From the UHGV virus genome UHGV-0342645: a DNA stretch of 59,919 nt. One strand, 5' to 3'. The DNA is from a virus. Every line of letters starts with the position of its first letter. Position 1 is the stretch's first letter. Shown piece after piece: positions 1 through 28,628 of the stretch. The notes under the pieces were generated by a model. It ran no database searches and was not told the DNA's origin. It saw only the letters and a list, made by a program, of their open reading frames with translations. A program made the position numbers and the translations under genes.

Positions 1-29
1 ACACTAATAGCTACAGAACTCTTTTTCAT
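1..29 (-). CDS. 5' end of head scaffolding-like protein gene split by the window boundary (continues at 59919 downward)
   Basis: ATG at 29..27 with GGAGA Shine-Dalgarno at 37..33. Reading past position 1 joins in frame to 59919 and runs into the 59076..59876 ORF, whose track start is only an internal GTG. Confidence 0.6.
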
Positions 30-124
30 TTCTTATCTCCGTTGTCACCCGTGTGACGTTTTTGGGGCTGAGCCGTCCCAGCCCCGTGTTCGTTAATATA
101 AACCAATCAATTTGGAAGTTGCAA

Positions 125-1621
125 CTATTCTTTATCGGAAGCGTCGTCTTCCTTAGGATCTTTGTTTACTTGCTGCTCTGCGTTTAAATCAGCTTTAGCA
201 TCATCGGGCAGAGGCCACTTCTTAAGCTCTTCTTCAAGAATTGCCATTTCTTCTTCAAAGCTTAGTGTGGTCAAGCCCTGATCAACAAGCCAGCCATGAA
301 TAGACTGCAAGCTGATCGGAGCCTTAAGGTTGCGTGCAGTAATAATTTGAACAAAGTCCTGACCGTTAAACATGCTCTTGGTAAATTCAAGATTAGGCTT
401 AACCACAACCTTCTCTGGATCAGCACCCATCCATTTAGCACAAACCTTCAGCAAGTTTTCCAAACCTGCCGCACCAGTATACGCAATTCGAATCAGGCTA
501 GCGGTACGCGCAGCAATACGCGTTTTCATAGCTTCGCCCGATTCCTGCGTGCTCTTGGTGTTGTTTACCATCTGCCCGGCTTTAATCTGAGCTTCTTGCT
601 TATCCGCTGCTAATGCGAGGCGTTGCTCGGACAAACCGTCACCGCTAACGCCTACATATTTAGCGTCACCACCAATAGCAACGTTAATGACCGCTCCAGG
701 ACCGATGCGCTGAGGGGCTTTATCTCCATTCTCCCCAGTACCGCCAACAACAACTAATGTGTCCTGCCCCTGCATATGCAGACTCTGACGGTAATCAGCA
801 TCACTTCGGTACATGCTTAGGCAGATGTTAGCTAGCCCCAATAATGGTGGCGCTTCCGGTGCTGGGGTAATATCTGTCGTATTAACAAACTGGAAAGGTA
901 TTTCGTCCAGCGTGTTACCTTTATAATAAGGAGCAATCATTTGCCCTTCATCATAATTGGTATTGTTGATAAACAAATGCTGGGAGTAGACCGCCCCACC
1001 TGCAACTTCATCTGTGTCCATCGGGCCTAATTGCAGGACGCGATAACGCTTCTCTTCTTTCCAGTCAAACTGATTGACACGTACAGGACCGCTTTCATCC
1101 AGAACAACCATGTTCAAGTTGATATTGCCTAATTCATCTTTACCATCATCCCAGTTGATAATGGATAAAGCATCATAAACGCTAATATAAGGTCTGTTAT
1201 TTACATCCTCACCTTTCGGCAAGTCCAGCAGCAGGCCCAAACGTCCATTTTTTAACTGCATTTCGTTGATGCGACGTAGCAGAGCAATAATGTCTTCACC
1301 GTCCGCAGTACACAGCTCCCGCATGTACTCCATTTCAGGAGGAAGCTGGATTGTAGGAGGCTTCTGGTGCAACAGACCTAAATTGTTTGTGACCGCACTT
1401 GAATAATCGTCAGGGAAGTTAGCACGCAGACGATAAGCAAGCCAACGTTGAAAGCCCAAATCATTAGGATTATTCATCCCATCAATAATCATGGAAGCTA
1501 AAGGTGGTAGATATTTAACACCTTCTTCCTTAATTTTATCTTCACCCTCATAGCAGTCGTTGCACTTAACCCATGCATCCTTCCACTTGTCATATAGCGG
1601 GTGAGTTGCATCAATACCCAT
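125..1621 (-). CDS. portal protein
   Basis: 498 aa ORF directly downstream of the terminase large subunit and upstream of scaffold/capsid genes. Size, order and acidic C-terminus are typical of siphovirus portals. Confidence 0.75.
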   Translation of the reverse strand: MGIDATHPLYDKWKDAWVKCNDCYEGEDKIKEEGVKYLPPLASMIIDGMNNPNDLGFQRWLAYRLRANFPDDYSSAVTNNLGLLHQKPPTIQLPPEMEYMRELCTADGEDIIALLRRINEMQLKNGRLGLLLDLPKGEDVNNRPYISVYDALSIINWDDGKDELGNINLNMVVLDESGPVRVNQFDWKEEKRYRVLQLGPMDTDEVAGGAVYSQHLFINNTNYDEGQMIAPYYKGNTLDEIPFQFVNTTDITPAPEAPPLLGLANICLSMYRSDADYRQSLHMQGQDTLVVVGGTGENGDKAPQRIGPGAVINVAIGGDAKYVGVSGDGLSEQRLALAADKQEAQIKAGQMVNNTKSTQESGEAMKTRIAARTASLIRIAYTGAAGLENLLKVCAKWMGADPEKVVVKPNLEFTKSMFNGQDFVQIITARNLKAPISLQSIHGWLVDQGLTTLSFEEEMAILEEELKKWPLPDDAKADLNAEQQVNKDPKEDDASDKE

Positions 1622-1632
1622 ATACCCTCCAG

Positions 1633-3192
1633 TTAAATACCGATAGTTTTACCAACACCTGTATAAACAGCTTGATCCAGAACCATATAACGTACTTCAT
1701 CCCCCATATGGTCTTCGCATTCCGTATCAACGTCGTCCTGATCTACTTCATCGCGCGGAAGACTTGGAACCAGCTCAAAGAAATAATTGCAATTATCGAA
1801 AACATACATTGCTGGATTTTCACGTGGTCCCGGCAAAGGTTTACCGTTTGCATCTTCCCGCAACGCGGCTTTAAGAAACTCACGCATTTTCTGCCATCCG
1901 CGTTTACGCGACCCAGCAGATTTATCACTTCTCTTCCAATGGATGCCGTTATACAGCTTGCCGTTGAGACGGATTTTCTTCGCCATTGTTGCAGCGGTGG
2001 AGTTATTGTTCTCCAGATCCCAAATAGAATTATCCGCAGGTCCAGGAACTACACGGTCGTGTATGCCCCAGGCCAATTCCCGCTCCAGTATACCGCTTGC
2101 AATCTCTGAGTCCAGCAAATGTAGACCTTCGTTTGTTTTACCGTTAGTGCCGTACCATTCGTTAATACGGAACAAGTCACCGCGTACAGTAGAGAATGTA
2201 GTACCGTCCTCACGTACAACATCCGAACCGTCACTAATAGCCCACCAGCCAACGGAGAATGGTTTTGAAGAACCCCAGTCGAAAGAACGTGTAATCTTCC
2301 AGCTTGATGGGATTGGGAATGGGCGTATTTTATGAACAGTGCTACGCCACAGATCATCGAACATACCGCCGGAGGTGATATCCCAGCTACCGCCTAACCA
2401 TGCAGCTCGTTTGTTCGGATCTGTGATGGACATAAGCTCTGCAATATATTTCGGGCTCAGGTTTTTGTTCTCGCGGTAAGATCCGAAGATATGGCATTGC
2501 GTCGTAACCACATCTTCCTCTTTCTGCGTCCGCGGGTTAAACACTCGCGTAGTTTTCCTGAGTATCTTACCCATCGGTGCAGCATCAATGAAGCGTTTCT
2601 TAACCCAGTTATGCCCCGCACCAAACGGGTTACTGGTAGCAAATACTTCCAGAGGAATGTCTGGTAAATATGTGACAGTACCGTCCGGATCGATAATTGG
2701 ATTATCTTCGGGTAGGAAGGATGAACGGTTACAGGACATCATTGCTTCAAACAAACGCCCGTCCGGATACTTTGTTAATTCGTTCCATCCGATAAACGGG
2801 TATTCGTGACCATGATAAGACCAATAATCCTTTTCTTTGCAAGCAACACGGAACAGCAATTCTTCCCCAGTGGGCCAAACCCATTTATAATCAGACTTCG
2901 AGCTAAGGAATTTAGCACCATCTTTAAATTCAGGGAACCAACGCTGTGATTTGGTTACAAGGTCATCAAGGTTTTTATATTCACGATCGAATATAATACC
3001 CTTCCAGAATTTACCGTACCCTACGCCAACATTCTTACGGAAACGCATAAGCTGGCAGTCCGTCTTTCCAGGACCGCGAGTACCGTGGTATAAAATGATA
3101 TCAGCAGGACAGGATAGAGCGAGTGTCTGTGAACCTGGATGTGGCTTCCAGACTACTCGCGGCATGTTATCAGGTTGTCGGTTTAGCTCCAT
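1633..3192 (-). CDS. terL: terminase large subunit
   Basis: 519 aa. N-terminal ATPase with P-loop-like HGTRGPGKTD and a C-terminal nuclease-sized domain. Overlaps the upstream small-subunit-like ORF by 23 nt. Confidence 0.85.
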   Translation of the reverse strand: MELNRQPDNMPRVVWKPHPGSQTLALSCPADIILYHGTRGPGKTDCQLMRFRKNVGVGYGKFWKGIIFDREYKNLDDLVTKSQRWFPEFKDGAKFLSSKSDYKWVWPTGEELLFRVACKEKDYWSYHGHEYPFIGWNELTKYPDGRLFEAMMSCNRSSFLPEDNPIIDPDGTVTYLPDIPLEVFATSNPFGAGHNWVKKRFIDAAPMGKILRKTTRVFNPRTQKEEDVVTTQCHIFGSYRENKNLSPKYIAELMSITDPNKRAAWLGGSWDITSGGMFDDLWRSTVHKIRPFPIPSSWKITRSFDWGSSKPFSVGWWAISDGSDVVREDGTTFSTVRGDLFRINEWYGTNGKTNEGLHLLDSEIASGILERELAWGIHDRVVPGPADNSIWDLENNNSTAATMAKKIRLNGKLYNGIHWKRSDKSAGSRKRGWQKMREFLKAALREDANGKPLPGPRENPAMYVFDNCNYFFELVPSLPRDEVDQDDVDTECEDHMGDEVRYMVLDQAVYTGVGKTIGI

Positions 3193-3727
3193 CTTCAGTC
3201 TCTTTAACTAGTCGTTGTTGAGACTCGGATGCAGTTTTTTCCCATTCGTCAATATTTGCTACAGCAGGGACTATCATTACGCCGCCTCTGTTAGTAACAT
3301 CAATTTTAGCCTTCTTGGGAGCATCCAAATCATAAATTTGTGCAAGCTTGCCCAATGCGGCTACTCTAGCAGCTTGAGAAGATCCCGGTCCTGTATAATG
3401 AGCTTCACGTTTTAATGCTTCAATGATATGCTGACGCTCTAGGTCTGCTTCAATGTTAGCTTGCTCAGAAGTACGTTGAACACGGGATCTTTCAATCTCC
3501 TTGAGCTTCCATCGAACGTAACAGTCCGTGGCAAAGCGTTGGCCAAGCTCCTGTGCAAACATAGCATTGAACCCGCATCTCATGCAAGCGTTAGTCCAAT
3601 TGTAGTCGAACATATACTCAGCAACAACTTTGTCACGTATTGCCATCTCGTCAGCGGACAAGCTATTTGCATACTGGATATAGTTCGTCCAGTCACGATC
3701 ATATTGCTCTTGACTTGCCCCGTTCAT
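3170..3727 (-). CDS. terS: putative terminase small subunit
   Basis: 185 aa ORF with GGGGAG SD, immediately upstream of and overlapping terL. Call rests on position and size only. Confidence 0.5.
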   Translation of the reverse strand: MNGASQEQYDRDWTNYIQYANSLSADEMAIRDKVVAEYMFDYNWTNACMRCGFNAMFAQELGQRFATDCYVRWKLKEIERSRVQRTSEQANIEADLERQHIIEALKREAHYTGPGSSQAARVAALGKLAQIYDLDAPKKAKIDVTNRGGVMIVPAVANIDEWEKTASESQQRLVKETEDGAKPTT

Positions 3728-8945: not shown

Positions 8946-9302
8946 CTATATATTTTTCTGCCATTGACGAACAGTTTCTAACATAGATTTATAATCGTCA
9001 TCCCAATCATAATTCTCAACATCTTTTTGAAGTTTGGCGATCATTTCTTCAAGGCTGTTAGCTGGTAAGTAGCTTTCACCAAATGCAGCAAGACGTTTGT
9101 GATAATCGGGGCTTTGTTCATCCACCCAGCCAAATTCAGCTTCAAATGAATCACAACCCGAGCACGATCCATAAGAACCTTCACAAACCCCCAATACACC
9201 ATCTTTTCTTATCAGGGCAAGCCATTCACCCTGATAACAACCAAACTCAACAAAATCTAATACTTCGCATCCAGCAGCTTCTAATGCTAATTGATAAGAC
9301 AT
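8946..9302 (-). CDS. hypothetical protein
   Basis: 118 aa with GAGGAG SD and a Cys-rich central segment (SYGSCSGCDSF). Confidence 0.6.
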   Translation of the reverse strand: MSYQLALEAAGCEVLDFVEFGCYQGEWLALIRKDGVLGVCEGSYGSCSGCDSFEAEFGWVDEQSPDYHKRLAAFGESYLPANSLEEMIAKLQKDVENYDWDDDYKSMLETVRQWQKNI

Positions 9303-9544
9303 TCTTCTTGCTCCTCTACATATTTAGTGACACATTTTTGAAAATTAAGAACGATATTTTTCTCTTTTACGGAGTGAAATTTAACACGTTCCGGGCAGAT
9401 AATCCAGCCTTCAAAACGTTGAGTAGCGTCATTCCATGCAGCACGACCATAATAGCCGCGATATGGACCTAATCGCATTGCATTTACCTCTGTAACCACA
9501 TTGCTGGAGGTGCTGGGTGTAGCGCTTACACTGGAGTCGCACAT
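9287..9544 (-). CDS. hypothetical protein with HicB-like fold signature
   Basis: ATG 9544 with AGGAGG SD. GYYGRAAWNDATQRFEGWI...KFHSVKEKNIVLNFQKCVTKYVE resembles HicB-like antitoxin N-domains, from pattern recollection only. Confidence 0.5.
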   Translation of the reverse strand: MCDSSVSATPSTSSNVVTEVNAMRLGPYRGYYGRAAWNDATQRFEGWIICPERVKFHSVKEKNIVLNFQKCVTKYVEEQEECLIN

Positions 9545-9653
9545 AATACCTCCTTGATGCTCTAAAAACAGGTGTGAATTGATAGAAATTGCTTGCATCC
9601 GCTTAAAGATGGTAGCTATGGAGCAGCTACAAGACGAATTATACGTTGACGAC

Positions 9654-9878
9654 TCAGAATTTACTACCAAAATCCATATATTTGACGGTTATAGTGAATA
9701 TGCCATGTTTAATATTGTCCGTGAGATACAAATTACTATCCAATTCCTCTTTAGTGTACAGATAAGCATTACTTACTTCATCTGTAAGTCCTTGCATCGG
9801 AGCAAGCAGCCACCAACCCCTCCAGTCAAACATAGGCGATTTATCAGACACTCTTAATATATAACGTTTATTATTCAA
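9654..9878 (-). CDS. hypothetical protein
   Basis: 74 aa ORF with a TTG start and only a weak SD. Coding status is uncertain. Confidence 0.35.
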   Translation of the reverse strand: MNNKRYILRVSDKSPMFDWRGWWLLAPMQGLTDEVSNAYLYTKEELDSNLYLTDNIKHGIFTITVKYMDFGSKF

Positions 9879-9899
9879 ACCAATACCTTGTCACCAGAC

Positions 9900-9995
9900 T
9901 AATTTCGCATTGCTAGTACAACAATTAGCACCATTAACATTGCTCCAGCTACCATACCGAGCACAAATACACTAGCTAATCCGATTAAACTCATT
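9900..9995 (-). CDS. small hydrophobic peptide (31 aa, single TM)
   Basis: Not in the track (<60 aa). GGAGA SD 7 nt upstream of ATG 9995. Translation: MSLIGLASVFVLGMVAGAMLMVLIVVLAMRN. Confidence 0.4.
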
Positions 9996-10340
9996 TCAAT
10001 ATCTCCGATCAGTTTTATATCATCCATATTTTAACACTAAACCCAGTATATAGAAAGCGTGAAATACTCAAGGGTCCGTTTTTAAGGTAGGTGGGGTCAT
10101 GGATGTAGGTGGATAGTAAAGTGATGGGTGAGATTTAGACAAGGACTTACTATCAGGATGGACAGGGCACGCCCCAGCGCTCCAAGTACCTGGAAAAGGA
10201 TGGGTCGGGTTGCGCGGCTGGGCCTGCGTGGGTCGGTGTGCGCTGTGCGAGCTGTGCGCCACGCTGTGCGCCTGTTTCACCCGAGCTAATGCATTACCAT
10301 TGCCTATATGCATTAGCTCGCTAGCGTGGCGCTGTGTGTG

Positions 10341-10499
10341 TTATAGCGCCGCTCCTCCTTTGCGGGCTTTACGTGCTGCATAACGCTGTTCCCTTACTTC
10401 GTTGTATTGGCGATCCCATTTAGCATCCATTACTTCGGTTACGATCAGTGCTACCAGTGGACTTACTACTGCGATAACCATCATAATTAAAATTAACAT
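10341..10499 (-). CDS. small membrane protein (52 aa, N-terminal TM, basic C-terminus)
   Basis: Not in the track. GGAG SD then ATG 10499. Translation: MLILIMMVIAVVSPLVALIVTEVMDAKWDRQYNEVREQRYAARKARKGGAAL. Confidence 0.5.
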   Translation of the reverse strand: MLILIMMVIAVVSPLVALIVTEVMDAKWDRQYNEVREQRYAARKARKGGAAL

Positions 10500-10548
10500 T
10501 TTGTTTACTCCGTTATTTGGTTGATGTATGTAGTATCCACCAGACCGA

Positions 10549-10731
10549 TCACGATGTCCAGATGTTTTGGTCGATTAATTTTGCATAGAAGTCGCGCCCT
10601 GTCTGCATGGCTTGGGACCAGTTGGTTTCTTCCCATTCCATGCGCATAACCTGCAATAATAACGCGTGTTGTGCGCGGGTAAGTTTGTTTTTACTGGACA
10701 TAATATACCTCTGCATAGTTAAGTTAGCCAT
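10549..10731 (-). CDS. hypothetical protein (first gene of leftward arm)
   Basis: 60 aa with AGGGG SD, downstream of the leftward promoter. Confidence 0.55.
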   Translation of the reverse strand: MANLTMQRYIMSSKNKLTRAQHALLLQVMRMEWEETNWSQAMQTGRDFYAKLIDQNIWTS

Positions 10732-10782
10732 TTTGTGTACCCCTTTAAGTTAAGTTTTACTGTATTACCTTGCTATGTGTAT

Positions 10783-10811
10783 ATAGTAATGCTAGACCTA
10801 AAACTTGCCAA
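10783..10811 (-). promoter_or_regulatory. sigma70-like leftward promoter
   Basis: Minus strand TTGGCA (10811..10806), 17 nt spacer, TACTAT (10788..10783). The -35 overlaps the -35 of the rightward promoter. Confidence 0.55.
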
Positions 10812-10833
10812 GTGTTTTTGCACTTTTTATAAA
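10805..10833 (+). promoter_or_regulatory. sigma70-like rightward promoter
   Basis: TTGCCA (10805..10810), 17 nt spacer, TATAAA (10828..10833). The -10 lies within the 12-bp palindrome TTTTTATAAAAA. Confidence 0.55.
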
Positions 10834-11053
10834 AATATTTTGGCACCTTTTATGCCTGCGTGTGCGTGCCCGCGCGTATAGTGCAATTCGTGTGATGTTA
10901 GTTAGGCCGTTTGTGCTAAACATGCAGGGCAAGCATAATTTTCACTAGATGCAAAACAATATCAAAATAGCACTTTTGGCCTATTCAATATCACGATGCA
11001 AGGCTATTATTACTTCAACAAAGCAATACTGCTTAACCACATTAGGTAGCATC

Positions 11054-11206
11054 ATGGAATTCAAATTAGTGGGACTCGAGTCCGGTAAAATAGCTGGTTA
11101 TGTATCTGCTCCAAGCTGGGAAGAGGCCGAAATCTTCTTAATGGGTCAGTTCGATATGTACATTAGCGAAATTTACAAAGAATACGATTTAGTCCAAATT
11201 AAGTGA
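11054..11206 (+). CDS. hypothetical protein
   Basis: Internal ATG 11054 (MEFKLVGL...) with AGGTAG SD-like sequence. 50 aa. Confidence 0.4.
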   Translation: MEFKLVGLESGKIAGYVSAPSWEEAEIFLMGQFDMYISEIYKEYDLVQIK

Positions 11207-11274
11207 TTTATATCTTGCCTAGTTGATACGACTGGGCAATAATAAGTCAACTTAAACAAAACGAGGATTACATC

Positions 11275-11523
11275 ATGGCTACTTCTATCGTCACCAAATT
11301 TTTGGCACCAACTAACACCAAAGGCGCACGCATTGCAGTTAAAGGTTTTGGCAAGCGCAAAGTCTATAGCTGGGACTATGCACTCGACGTAACGCTTAAC
11401 CATAAAGCAGCGGTACAGCAGTTCCTCAAAGCGTTTAACGCCGAAAACGACACCGACTATGGCATCGTTGCTTTCGCAAGCATGGATATCGCAACCGCCG
11501 ATTTCGTAGCAATCGTGCAGTAA
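11275..11523 (+). CDS. hypothetical protein
   Basis: 82 aa with GAGGA SD. Confidence 0.6.
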   Translation: MATSIVTKFLAPTNTKGARIAVKGFGKRKVYSWDYALDVTLNHKAAVQQFLKAFNAENDTDYGIVAFASMDIATADFVAIVQ

Positions 11524-12755: not shown

Positions 12756-13063
12756 GTTTATGAAAGTTTATAGAGTTTATATTGTGAAGTATAAACAATC
12801 ACATAATACCAATAGGTACTATATACATTAATAATAAATCCTTATTTTATATATATTTATAGTTATTATTAATATTAGTTTAATTTGGTTTATTTTAGTT
12901 AGTTGACTGAAAGTTTATAAGTTTATAGGGGTATACTCCCAACTTTTTTCAGATAATTAATAGTATAGTAGTGATAGTGGTTTTTGCACGTTTTCACTAC
13001 TACTACTAATTATTTGTTTGAAAAGGGGGTAATAAGGGGAAACCGTAAACTTATAAACTTTGC
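12756..13063. repeat. GTTTAT(A) iteron-like repeats
   Basis: GTTTAT at 12756, 12766 and 12775. AAAGTTTATAAGTTTATAGG at 12910..12929. Its inverted copy AAACTTATAAACTTTG at ~13048..13063. All lie in very AT-rich DNA. Confidence 0.6.
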
Positions 13064-13229
13064 TCTGTGTAAAAATAAAAAATTAGTGAATAGTGAGATA
13101 GTGGTTCATAGTGGCAAACTTTTACAAAGCGAGTAACGACGCACTATACACATTTTGCCCACTATGTACGCCACTAAGCACTATATTAAAACAATCCTTG
13201 CAAATAGCTAATGTCTGTTTTATAGTGGC
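12961..13229. repeat. ATAGTG(G) / CACTAT motif array
   Basis: ATAGTGG at 12974, 13098, 13108 and 13222. TAGTG at 13084 and 13091. Inverted CCACTAT/CACTAT at 13142, 13159 and 13179. Confidence 0.6.
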
Positions 13230-13253
13230 TTCACCAGTTGACTAGGAGGATTT

Positions 13254-18814: not shown

Positions 18815-19417
18815 ATGACTGACGTATTAAATAACATGCACACTATTTCTATAACTGATTCTAGCGTAACTGATTCTAGCGTAACTGTTACACCCTTTGC
18901 GCCAACTCTTCTCGGGGTGAAGCGGTTAACTGATACGGCAATTCTACCAGCGTTCGCTACTGCTGGGGCAGCTTGCTTTGACCTGCACGCGGATCTCAAA
19001 AGTGAAGACGGTTGTGAACAAATCATTTTCTCTTACGAGCACATATTCCGCACAGGGTTGGCGTTTGATATCCCTAAAGGGTATGCGCTTATGGTCTATT
19101 CCCGTAGTGGACACGGATTCAAAAATGACGTGCGTTTGGCAAACTGCGTGGGCGTTATTGATAGCGATTACACTGGCGAAGTTAAAGTTAAGCTTACTAT
19201 TGATCATGATGGTAGTTTTACCGTTAGTCATGGTGATCGTATTGCGCAAGCTATGCTTATTAAGGTGCCTTGCGTGCAACTGGTAGAAGTAGACGAGCTT
19301 AAGACTACTGAGCGCGGTGCTAATGGCTTCGGGTCCACTGGTACGTCTGCCAATGTGGTTACAGCAGAGGAAGAAGCTGCTACGCATCCAATTATAACTT
19401 CCCGCTATTTGAAATAG
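18815..19417 (+). CDS. dut: dUTPase (trimeric type) with N- and C-terminal extensions
   Basis: Motifs AGAACFDL, SRSG, GVIDSDYTGEV, RIAQ and RGANGFGSTG. AAGGTG SD. Confidence 0.85.
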   Translation: MTDVLNNMHTISITDSSVTDSSVTVTPFAPTLLGVKRLTDTAILPAFATAGAACFDLHADLKSEDGCEQIIFSYEHIFRTGLAFDIPKGYALMVYSRSGHGFKNDVRLANCVGVIDSDYTGEVKVKLTIDHDGSFTVSHGDRIAQAMLIKVPCVQLVEVDELKTTERGANGFGSTGTSANVVTAEEEAATHPIITSRYLK

Positions 19418-27827: not shown

Positions 27828-28628
27828 ATGAGCAACATTGAAGACAAAAAAGCTGCCGCCGCAGCCGCCGCTGCCGCTGCAAAATCTGCTAAACCTGCAA
27901 AGAAAGAAGCTACTGTGAATGATGCAGAAGCTAAGAAAGCCGCTGCCGCTGAAGCTGCACGCGTAGCAAAAGAGAAAAAAGAAGCAGAGAAAAAAGCTGC
28001 CGCTGAAAAGAAACAAGCTGAAATCCGCACTGAAGCGGAAAACAAATTTACCGCTCTTTCCCAGGCAGTTGAAACCGTGAAGTTTGCTTTATCTGGTATT
28101 ACCGATGAAAGCACTGTTGAACAGATTACGGAAGCAGAATCTAAGGGTTCTGAACAGCTGAAGCATTTAAAGAATGCTCTGAAAGAGCTGAAAGCAGTTG
28201 TTAAAAAATCCAAAGGTGAAGATCTGTCCGGTGCAGTGACTGCTGCTCAGAGCATGGTAGACGAACTGGATTCGTCTATTAAAGGCTTCAAAGACAAGAT
28301 CCGTGCTGCAAAACAGGCAGAAAAAGAAGCGGAAAAAGCACGCGCTAAAGAGCTCCGCGAGAAAGAAAAAGAAGCTAATCGTATGCCGGAACAGAACGGT
28401 GTTCGTCGTCCGCAACCGGAAACTTCCTGCGGTCGTGCCTGGGCTCTGATGGACCAGATTAGCGCTACGCTGGGTCAGCCTGCTCCGATCTCTTATGTTC
28501 TGAATCTGGCTGGTCGCCAGGGGCTGAACGAAGATACCGTTAAAACCCAGTATGCACGCTGGAAGAAATTTAATGGTGTAACTGGTCGCGTACCTGTACC
28601 AGTACCGGAAGCCCTGAACGGCTTGTAA
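27828..28628 (+). CDS. Ala/Lys/Glu-rich (histone-H1-like) protein with globular C-terminal domain
   Basis: ATG 27828 with GGAG SD. The N-terminal ~190 aa are AKE repeats (KKAAAAAAAAAAKSAKPAKKE...). The C-terminal ~70 aa are non-repetitive. Confidence 0.65.
   Translation: MSNIEDKKAAAAAAAAAAKSAKPAKKEATVNDAEAKKAAAAEAARVAKEKKEAEKKAAAEKKQAEIRTEAENKFTALSQAVETVKFALSGITDESTVEQITEAESKGSEQLKHLKNALKELKAVVKKSKGEDLSGAVTAAQSMVDELDSSIKGFKDKIRAAKQAEKEAEKARAKELREKEKEANRMPEQNGVRRPQPETSCGRAWALMDQISATLGQPAPISYVLNLAGRQGLNEDTVKTQYARWKKFNGVTGRVPVPVPEALNGL

Follow-up and report, generated by a model that had tools for sequence, protein, structure and literature searches.

The window analyzed here, the whole stretch of 59,919 nucleotides, is the genome of a Seuratvirus (Queuovirinae), whose relatives by BLAST include Seurat, CAjan, slur01 and the BASEL phages. 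Its genes are arranged in arms that diverge from a non-coding region, and the element that concerns us lies ~400 nt into the leftward arm, past the genes for a 60-aa and a 52-aa protein and between the divergent region and the remainder of the arm. The terminase genes are situated ~6.4 kb downstream of the element in the same arm.

125-1621, leftward arm: portal
1633-3192, minus strand: TerL, presumed to act at the end site
3170-3727, minus strand: TerS, presumed to act at the end site
10068-10313, minus strand: ORF of 81 aa
10341-10499, minus strand: small gene, 52 aa, inside the predicted terminal repeat
10549-10731, minus strand: small gene, 60 aa, inside the predicted terminal repeat
10,731 down to 125, minus strand, resuming at the window's far end: leftward arm, with TerS, TerL and portal on it
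~10,732-10,948: divergent non-coding region
10,949 to ~37,800, plus strand: rightward early arm

The two small leftward genes belong to PHROG families phrog_7482 and phrog_37795. TerL has no solved relative by sequence, and since its one domain match (Terminase_6N) is weak, the packaging class cannot be read from this protein.

Two further features occur within the early arm. A non-coding, AT-rich stretch of ~470 bp (12,780-13,250; GC ~0.23) contains all six genome copies of ATAGTGG, within 12,974-13,228. The equivalent stretch of phage ECP2304 carries another repeated motif (TTATTCC / GGAATAA) and is also where the terminal repeat of that phage has its outer boundary; these repeats may be phage-specific iterons or operators, possibly an origin. 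At 18,852-18,887, a perfect 15-nt tandem duplication (TAACTGATTCTAGCG TAACTGATTCTAGCG...) is present within a plus-strand ORF.

Composition, repeats and hairpin of the element

The original prediction described a GC-rich, G-skewed block of ~270 bp at this location, and the base composition bears it out. Positions 10068-10340 have G and C contents of 0.352 and 0.212 (GC 0.564, GC skew +0.25), compared with a GC content of 0.38 in the left flank and 0.444 in the whole window. The strand asymmetry is focused in 10084-10163 (G 0.375, C 0.075, skew +0.67), and 10164-10281 is simply GC-rich (0.686, skew +0.14). The direct and inverted repeats reported for the block are likewise all in place, and they are distributed over three modules as follows, with a caret marking a boundary between two bases.

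10084-10163: 5' module, just outside the predicted terminal repeat and hence present once per virion DNA
10087 and 10105: GTAGGTGG, the window's only two copies
10163^10164: predicted terminus, by homology to phages ECP2304 and yong3, with the repeat stopping at 10164 and 10163 lying just beyond it
10164-10285: type A GC-rich cassette, predicted terminal ~120 bp of the repeat
10201 and 10229: TGGGTCGG, the window's only two copies
10236: GTGTGCG, variant of CTGTGCG
10243, 10252 and 10264: CTGTGCG, direct repeat
10256-10265 and 10323-10332: outer inverted pair, 10 bp, perfect, GCGCCACGCT with AGCGTGGCGC
10282-10294 and 10308-10320: inner inverted repeat, 13 bp, perfect, CGAGCTAATGCAT with ATGCATTAGCTCG, 13-nt loop
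10286-10345: 3' module, common to types A and B, TAATGCATTACCATT ... GCTGTGTG(C/T)GTTAT, also given as TAATGCATTACCATT ... GCTGTGTGCGTTAT

The short direct repeats are by themselves only marginally unusual, because a 7-mer occurring three times arose in 57 of 1000 random sequences (5.7%), and Tandem Repeats Finder detected no array. An inverted repeat of at least 12 bp was present in 0 of 500 composition-matched random sequences (maximum, 11), where the random controls were drawn from first-order Markov chains fitted to the dinucleotide transitions of the segment itself and are not exact shuffles. The local hairpin fold is far stabler than shuffles (z = -6.3), and its loop, ATTACCATTRCCT, is conserved.

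On the plus strand, which is the template strand of the leftward arm, the sequence GGGTCGGGTTGCGCGGCTGGGCCTGCGTGGG (10202-10232) fits a four-tract G-quadruplex pattern that is not kept in yong3, STP-SP5 or the type B elements described below. A reading of the G-rich repeats as Chi sites was set aside: GCTGGTGG was not noticed on reading the element, and by our reasoning the polarity of the G-rich strand is wrong relative to the predicted end.

Conservation and modular structure

Across related phages, the element is a sharply bounded non-coding block (10084-10345) flanked by small genes that are mosaic from phage to phage. Among the 25 GenBank records holding most of it, identity is 91-97% in the closest 20 and 82-88% in the other five, and its right edge is in every case the stop codon of the small gene upstream, no matter which gene occupies that place. 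More distant full-length versions are found in Hafnia phage yong3 and Salmonella phage STP-SP5.

The element occurs in two main forms. Type A, carried by this window, Seurat, CAjan, slur01, SD04 and others, has a GC-rich cassette containing AAGTACC (10184-10190), the two copies of TGGGTCGG and the (C/G)TGTGCG repeats (10236-10270). In type B, carried by SA126VB, Skure, GottfriedDienst and ECP2304, most of ~10164-10285 is swapped for an unrelated cassette that is ~140 nt longer. The type B cassette (~1290-1540 in loci L005, L010 and L011 from SA126VB, Skure and GottfriedDienst; 3378-3695 in locus L147 from ECP2304) contains several hairpins, such as GCTATAT..ATATAGC and CAGGCCGTACG..CGTACAGCCTG, whose variants are G-T changes that would form G-U wobbles only in plus-strand RNA, and its conserved ORFs do not exceed 43-65 aa.

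The 5' module is common to type A, type B, yong3 and STP-SP5. It contains two copies of GTAGGTGG, has a variable middle (~10097-10148), with indels of 1, 16, 20, 21, 28 and 31 nt, and it ends in ACTATCAGGATGGA (10149-10162). This terminal block, ACTATCAG(G/A)AT(G/A)GA, is the best-conserved stretch across all versions of the element; over 10118-10163 as a whole, identity goes down to 65-67% in several relatives. Individual changes to the module include a run of 13 G that replaces ~16 nt in WildeMaa (locus L006, ~1247-1270), a loss of ~21 nt in SA80RD and Skure, and a 31-nt insertion at the equivalent of window position 10117 in slur01, SeppeHuegi and two further loci (L137 and L144).

Conservation of the hairpins is uneven. 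The inner hairpin is mostly retained within type A (87.8% of cells paired in 18 sequences), and in STP-SP5 its stem is compensated, with GAGCTAGCCC and GGGCTAGCTC around a similar loop. In type B its left arm is lost or replaced, and the yong3 element has another hairpin. Only in this phage are the arms of the outer inverted pair perfectly complementary: its columns 9-78 pair in 1 of the 18 sequences, and the helix is 77.8% paired.

We considered the possibility that the type A or type B cassette co-varies with TerS, which is ruled out by the 99.5-100% identity of TerS between phages of the two types. The cassette therefore does not set TerS specificity, which must reside in the shared modules.

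HNH homing-endonuclease genes adjoin the element in WildeMaa (locus L006, 682-1155), Skure (locus L010, 682-1155) and SA80RD (locus L002, 673-1155), and in phage HdK1 an HNH gene lies 169 nt past the boundary of the terminal repeat (locus L150, 3536-4015), which suggests a recurrent insertion site for such genes beside conserved sequence. This phage has no HNH gene beside the element.

A scan of IMG/VR with 15-mers returned mostly chance hits; searching next with a structured pattern gave 3 viral and 10 metagenomic loci. Among the IMG/VR contigs whose ends were worked out, reasoning from locus coordinates, none ends at the site.

A terminal-repeat boundary within the element of two relatives

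The element coincides with a terminal-repeat boundary in two Seuratvirus records. In ECP2304, a linear GenBank record of 63,590 bp with a type B element, positions 1-3695 are 100% identical to 59,896-63,590, forming a terminal repeat of 3,695 bp. In yong3, a record of 62,823 bp with a divergent type A element, positions 1-3424 equal 59,400-62,823, an exact terminal repeat of 3,424 bp. The literature search yielded no paper describing either record, and their ends are as deposited.

In ECP2304, the record ends at the inner boundary of the repeat. This boundary falls within the element and reads, in window orientation, ...GGATGGAT^AAGGG (in longer form, ...TTACTATCAGGATGGAT^AAGGGCCC...). The inner boundary in yong3 reads ...GGATGGAC^ATCCC (elsewhere given as ...ACTATCAGGATGGAC^ATCCC). 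Both align to ACTATCAGGATGGAC^AGGGC in the window, which is 10163^10164, the identical nucleotide in each case. That elements so different share a boundary nucleotide argues that these are not two arbitrary assembly overlaps. The boundary adjoins the most conserved block, ACTATCAGGATGGA, and is also the exact point at which type A and type B diverge; the 5' module lies directly outside the repeat in both phages. Short direct repeats occur on both flanks of the predicted cut site, a layout like that of known packaging sites.

The original prediction had offered a physical genome terminus (cos or pac) as one reading of the element. A terminus is what the single-nucleotide boundary in ECP2304 and yong3 points to, but a cos site is excluded because the relatives have terminal repeats of 3.4-3.7 kb.

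The outer repeat boundaries behave differently from the inner ones. A search for a motif common to the left (outer) and right (inner) boundaries found none above shuffles, and the outer ends have none in common with one another. Since neither comparison yields a common motif, a single pac-like cut combined with a measured second end is possible. At the ends of the window itself, there is no internal repeat of 16 nt or more.

The corresponding end in the sister genus Nonagvirus

Read data exist for a phage of the sister genus. In phage 9g, a single read-start hot spot was reported at position 28,243, with 91 starts in one orientation against a mean of 2.6; about as many reads cross this position, which the authors took to reflect a terminal repeat (Kulikov et al. 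2014, PMC4276943). In HdK1 (Korf et al. 2019, PMC6563267), positions 1-3367 equal 60,693-64,059, an exact repeat of 3,367 bp, and its inner boundary, GGGGCGGCTC^TTAGATCTC, falls exactly at 9g position 28,243.

The likeness between these phages and Seuratvirus, which belong to the same subfamily, is one of layout. The end occupies the same map position, past the divergent promoters and at the start of the late arm, the interior of the molecule is on the promoter side, and the sequence on that side of the cut is GC-rich. The repeat of HdK1 (3,367 bp) is similar in size to the Seuratvirus repeats (3,424 and 3,695 bp), and the late-sense RNA of the 80 nt beyond it is rich in C and poor in G. Unlike the Seuratvirus site, which is preceded by two small genes, the Nonagvirus cut precedes all late-arm genes, being situated in the intergenic leader of the first. 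A search of the Seuratvirus element against the Nonagvirus boundary region gave no nhmmer hit at E <= 10, so that the support from Nonagvirus is positional and not sequence based. A resemblance of the 9g boundary region noted by eye (GGCAGGTGAGG ~76 nt from the cut, compared with GGTAGGTGGGG at 78 nt) was not taken as homology for want of an nhmmer hit.

Most of the Seuratvirus and Nonagvirus records examined open at terS and have no terminal repeat, which was found only in ECP2304 and yong3 (Seuratvirus) and HdK1 (Nonagvirus), a tally that leaves aside HdSG1, a record of similar length. The difference of ~3.4-3.7 kb in record lengths, which is independent of gene content, can be ascribed to the omission of the terminal repeat from most records.

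The element as a probable packaging end site

Taken with the boundaries in the relatives, the location and modular structure of the element indicate that it is probably the packaging end site of this Seuratvirus, where a long direct terminal repeat would have its sequence-specific inner boundary, at 10163^10164. From the homology of the element, we infer that this phage has the same end as its relatives. We also infer that terminase is the cutting enzyme, together with the bases that it recognizes: TerS and TerL would recognize the conserved core around ACTATCAGGATGGA(C/T)^A in replicated concatemers and cut there. The core around 10149-10170 is probably the site of both recognition and cutting, and would yield one end of the chromosome.

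Packaged in this way, the GC-rich repeat and hairpin cassette (10164-10345) would form the outermost ~180 bp of virion DNA at both ends, and the C-rich 5' module (10084-10163) would remain only beside the internal copy. Starting at the site, the repeat would take in the two small leftward genes, the divergent promoters and the first ~2 kb of the early arm, and extend to the AT-rich region at ~13 kb.

A headful mechanism has a real but small chance of being the correct one. It would make one precise initiation cut at 10163^10164, a pac site, with the other ends measured, giving a redundancy of ~5-6% and no exact repeat. The single hot spot in 9g, crossed by about as many reads as start there, is consistent with such a mechanism, as are the TerL similarity of Seurat, which pointed to headful packaging, the lack of conservation at the outer repeat boundaries, and a redundancy in ECP2304, yong3 and HdK1 that amounts to 5.5-6.2% of the unique length. 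However, exact repeats with defined outer ends are present in three records from at least two laboratories, and record lengths vary (62.8 to 64.1 kb) but do not show unique length being traded against repeat length, as expected under headful packaging. The site is also 6.4 kb from terS, unlike many pac sites.

Sites of terminase cleavage in other phages resemble the element in part. As in lambda cos and the pac sites of SPP1 and P22, the predicted cut site is flanked by short repeated boxes. In contrast to lambda, the relatives of this phage have repeats of 3.4-3.7 kb and no cohesive ends, and the IHF consensus WATCAANNNNTTR is absent from 10,000-10,500; the site is also neither in nor beside terS. 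T7 and T3 acquire their ends when a direct terminal repeat, which must be duplicated during packaging, is cut at its edge in a sequence-specific manner, and their concatemer junctions have short repeats and an inverted repeat nearby. The repeat considered here is ~20 times longer than theirs, the host RNA polymerase is presumably used, and the terminase has no close solved relative. In T5, the injection-stop region is close to the inner edge of the terminal repeat. The left terminal repeat of T5 includes an untranslated region, rich in repeats and palindromes, that constitutes the injection stop signal (Davison 2020, bioRxiv 10.1101/866236). The Seuratvirus element is likewise untranslated and abounds in repeats and palindromes, and would belong to a long terminal repeat, but it lacks the DnaA-box cluster that defines the T5 region, and nothing points to injection in two steps.

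Transcription across the element

The composition of the 5' module raises the prospect of a Rho-dependent (rut) checkpoint, at which Rho would load on the RNA from 10163 down to 10084 and stop the leftward transcript short of the remaining arm until this block is relieved. The leftward RNA of 10084-10163 is rut-like in composition (C 0.38, G 0.07) and weakly structured: the minimum free energy fold gives this stretch a single 9-bp stem and leaves ~30 nt at its end unpaired, and the centroid has a similar stem. In yong3, ECP2304, HdK1 and 9g, the 80 nt bordering the repeat on its outer side show the same bias of C over G (C 0.29-0.36, G 0.07-0.12), although these sequences are unrelated. A promoter and terminator scan of the element found no promoter-like site and no leftward (minus-strand) intrinsic terminator-like site, the only terminator-like match being a weak one on the plus strand at 10322-10334. 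However, the argument is one of composition, and the bias could equally reflect a strand-specific site of protein binding; moreover, the middle of the module tolerates indels of 16-31 nt. A checkpoint of this kind could coexist with the terminus, and we consider it unlikely, if plausible.

In T7, a transcription pause site at the concatemer junction is linked to DNA processing, and an analogous connection between the DNA end and transcription can be imagined here, though it is speculative. There would be two copies per virion of the leftward promoter, which would lie inside the repeat. Transcription from the copy at the end of the molecule would produce a short transcript of the two small genes and the GC-rich cassette, running off at 10164, and Rho, acting on the 80 C-rich nt that adjoin the repeat, would halt transcription from the internal copy at that position. 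This stop would have to be overcome for the late arm to be expressed, and perhaps also for terminase to cut, in the manner of the T7 concatemer junction, with the type A and type B cassettes serving as alternative terminal or 3'-end modules. That all of these steps hold jointly, making the element a combined DNA end and transcription checkpoint, is rather improbable.

An antitermination element of the nut/put kind, in which a stem-loop RNA modifies RNA polymerase so that it passes downstream terminators, would account for the stable hairpin, its conserved loop and the compensated stem in STP-SP5. But there is no boxA-like YGCTCTTTA within 10,000-10,800 (at most one mismatch), the search of Rfam gave no match, and the left arm of the hairpin is replaced in type B phages that are otherwise nearly identical; yong3 has a hairpin of its own, and the outer pair is not perfect elsewhere. 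Because boxA and an Rfam match are lacking and the hairpin is dispensable in type B, this reading is very unlikely.

Equally slim are the chances of an iteron-bearing replication origin. Such an origin might present a palindrome and short direct repeats in non-coding sequence, but DnaA boxes in 9.5-13.5 kb are limited to two isolated matches with a single mismatch, none of them in the element, and the repeat-bearing center is swapped in type B with no evident loss of function. A better iteron candidate is found at 12,974-13,228.

Coding and RNA-gene content

The 81-aa ORF had been regarded as doubtful from the outset for its lack of a Shine-Dalgarno sequence, and comparison among relatives strengthens that doubt. 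No AGGAGG-like sequence was seen by eye upstream of its ATG, and it matches no PHROG family. Variable sites are spread over the three codon positions in a ratio of 14/12/14, with no 3-nucleotide periodicity; indels of 1, 16, 20, 21, 28 and 31 nt, most of them frame-breaking, occur within the element, and the ORF is missing in yong3, STP-SP5 and two other loci (L026 and L146). There is no ORF common to all versions of the element, and annotators disagree about the block, having assigned it a minus-strand ORF, a plus-strand ORF, nothing or a "terminator."

The element is similarly devoid of global RNA structure. Folds of the whole element are no better than those of shuffles on either strand (z = -1.55 and -0.55), and a search of 9,000-11,500 against Rfam found nothing relevant. 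RNAalifold runs were uninformative, the sequences being too similar. The element is thus non-coding and is not a globally structured RNA. The high conservation of the block and the ORFs called here by several annotators could be taken to favor a small protein gene (the 81-aa ORF) or a structured non-coding RNA gene, but given the absence of codon periodicity, the broken frames and missing ORFs, and the lack of family matches and of folding beyond shuffles, such a gene is a very unlikely explanation.

Implications for Seuratvirus genomes

Our search of the literature found no description of Seuratvirus genome ends or termini data, the sole proposal being headful packaging, which the announcement of the Seurat genome based on TerL similarity. 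The boundary of a terminal repeat is a known type of element, and its Seuratvirus example is new. The conserved core of ~20 bp is a candidate for the sequence that terminase recognizes.

If the end is at the element, most records omit ~3-3.7 kb of virion DNA, corresponding to the second copy of the repeat, it would be known where the genome properly starts, and one could predict which DNA enters the cell first. These points would be relevant to the engineering of these phages, which are restriction-resistant and have 7-deazaguanine-modified DNA, to the calling of termini from reads, and to the separation of early and late transcription.
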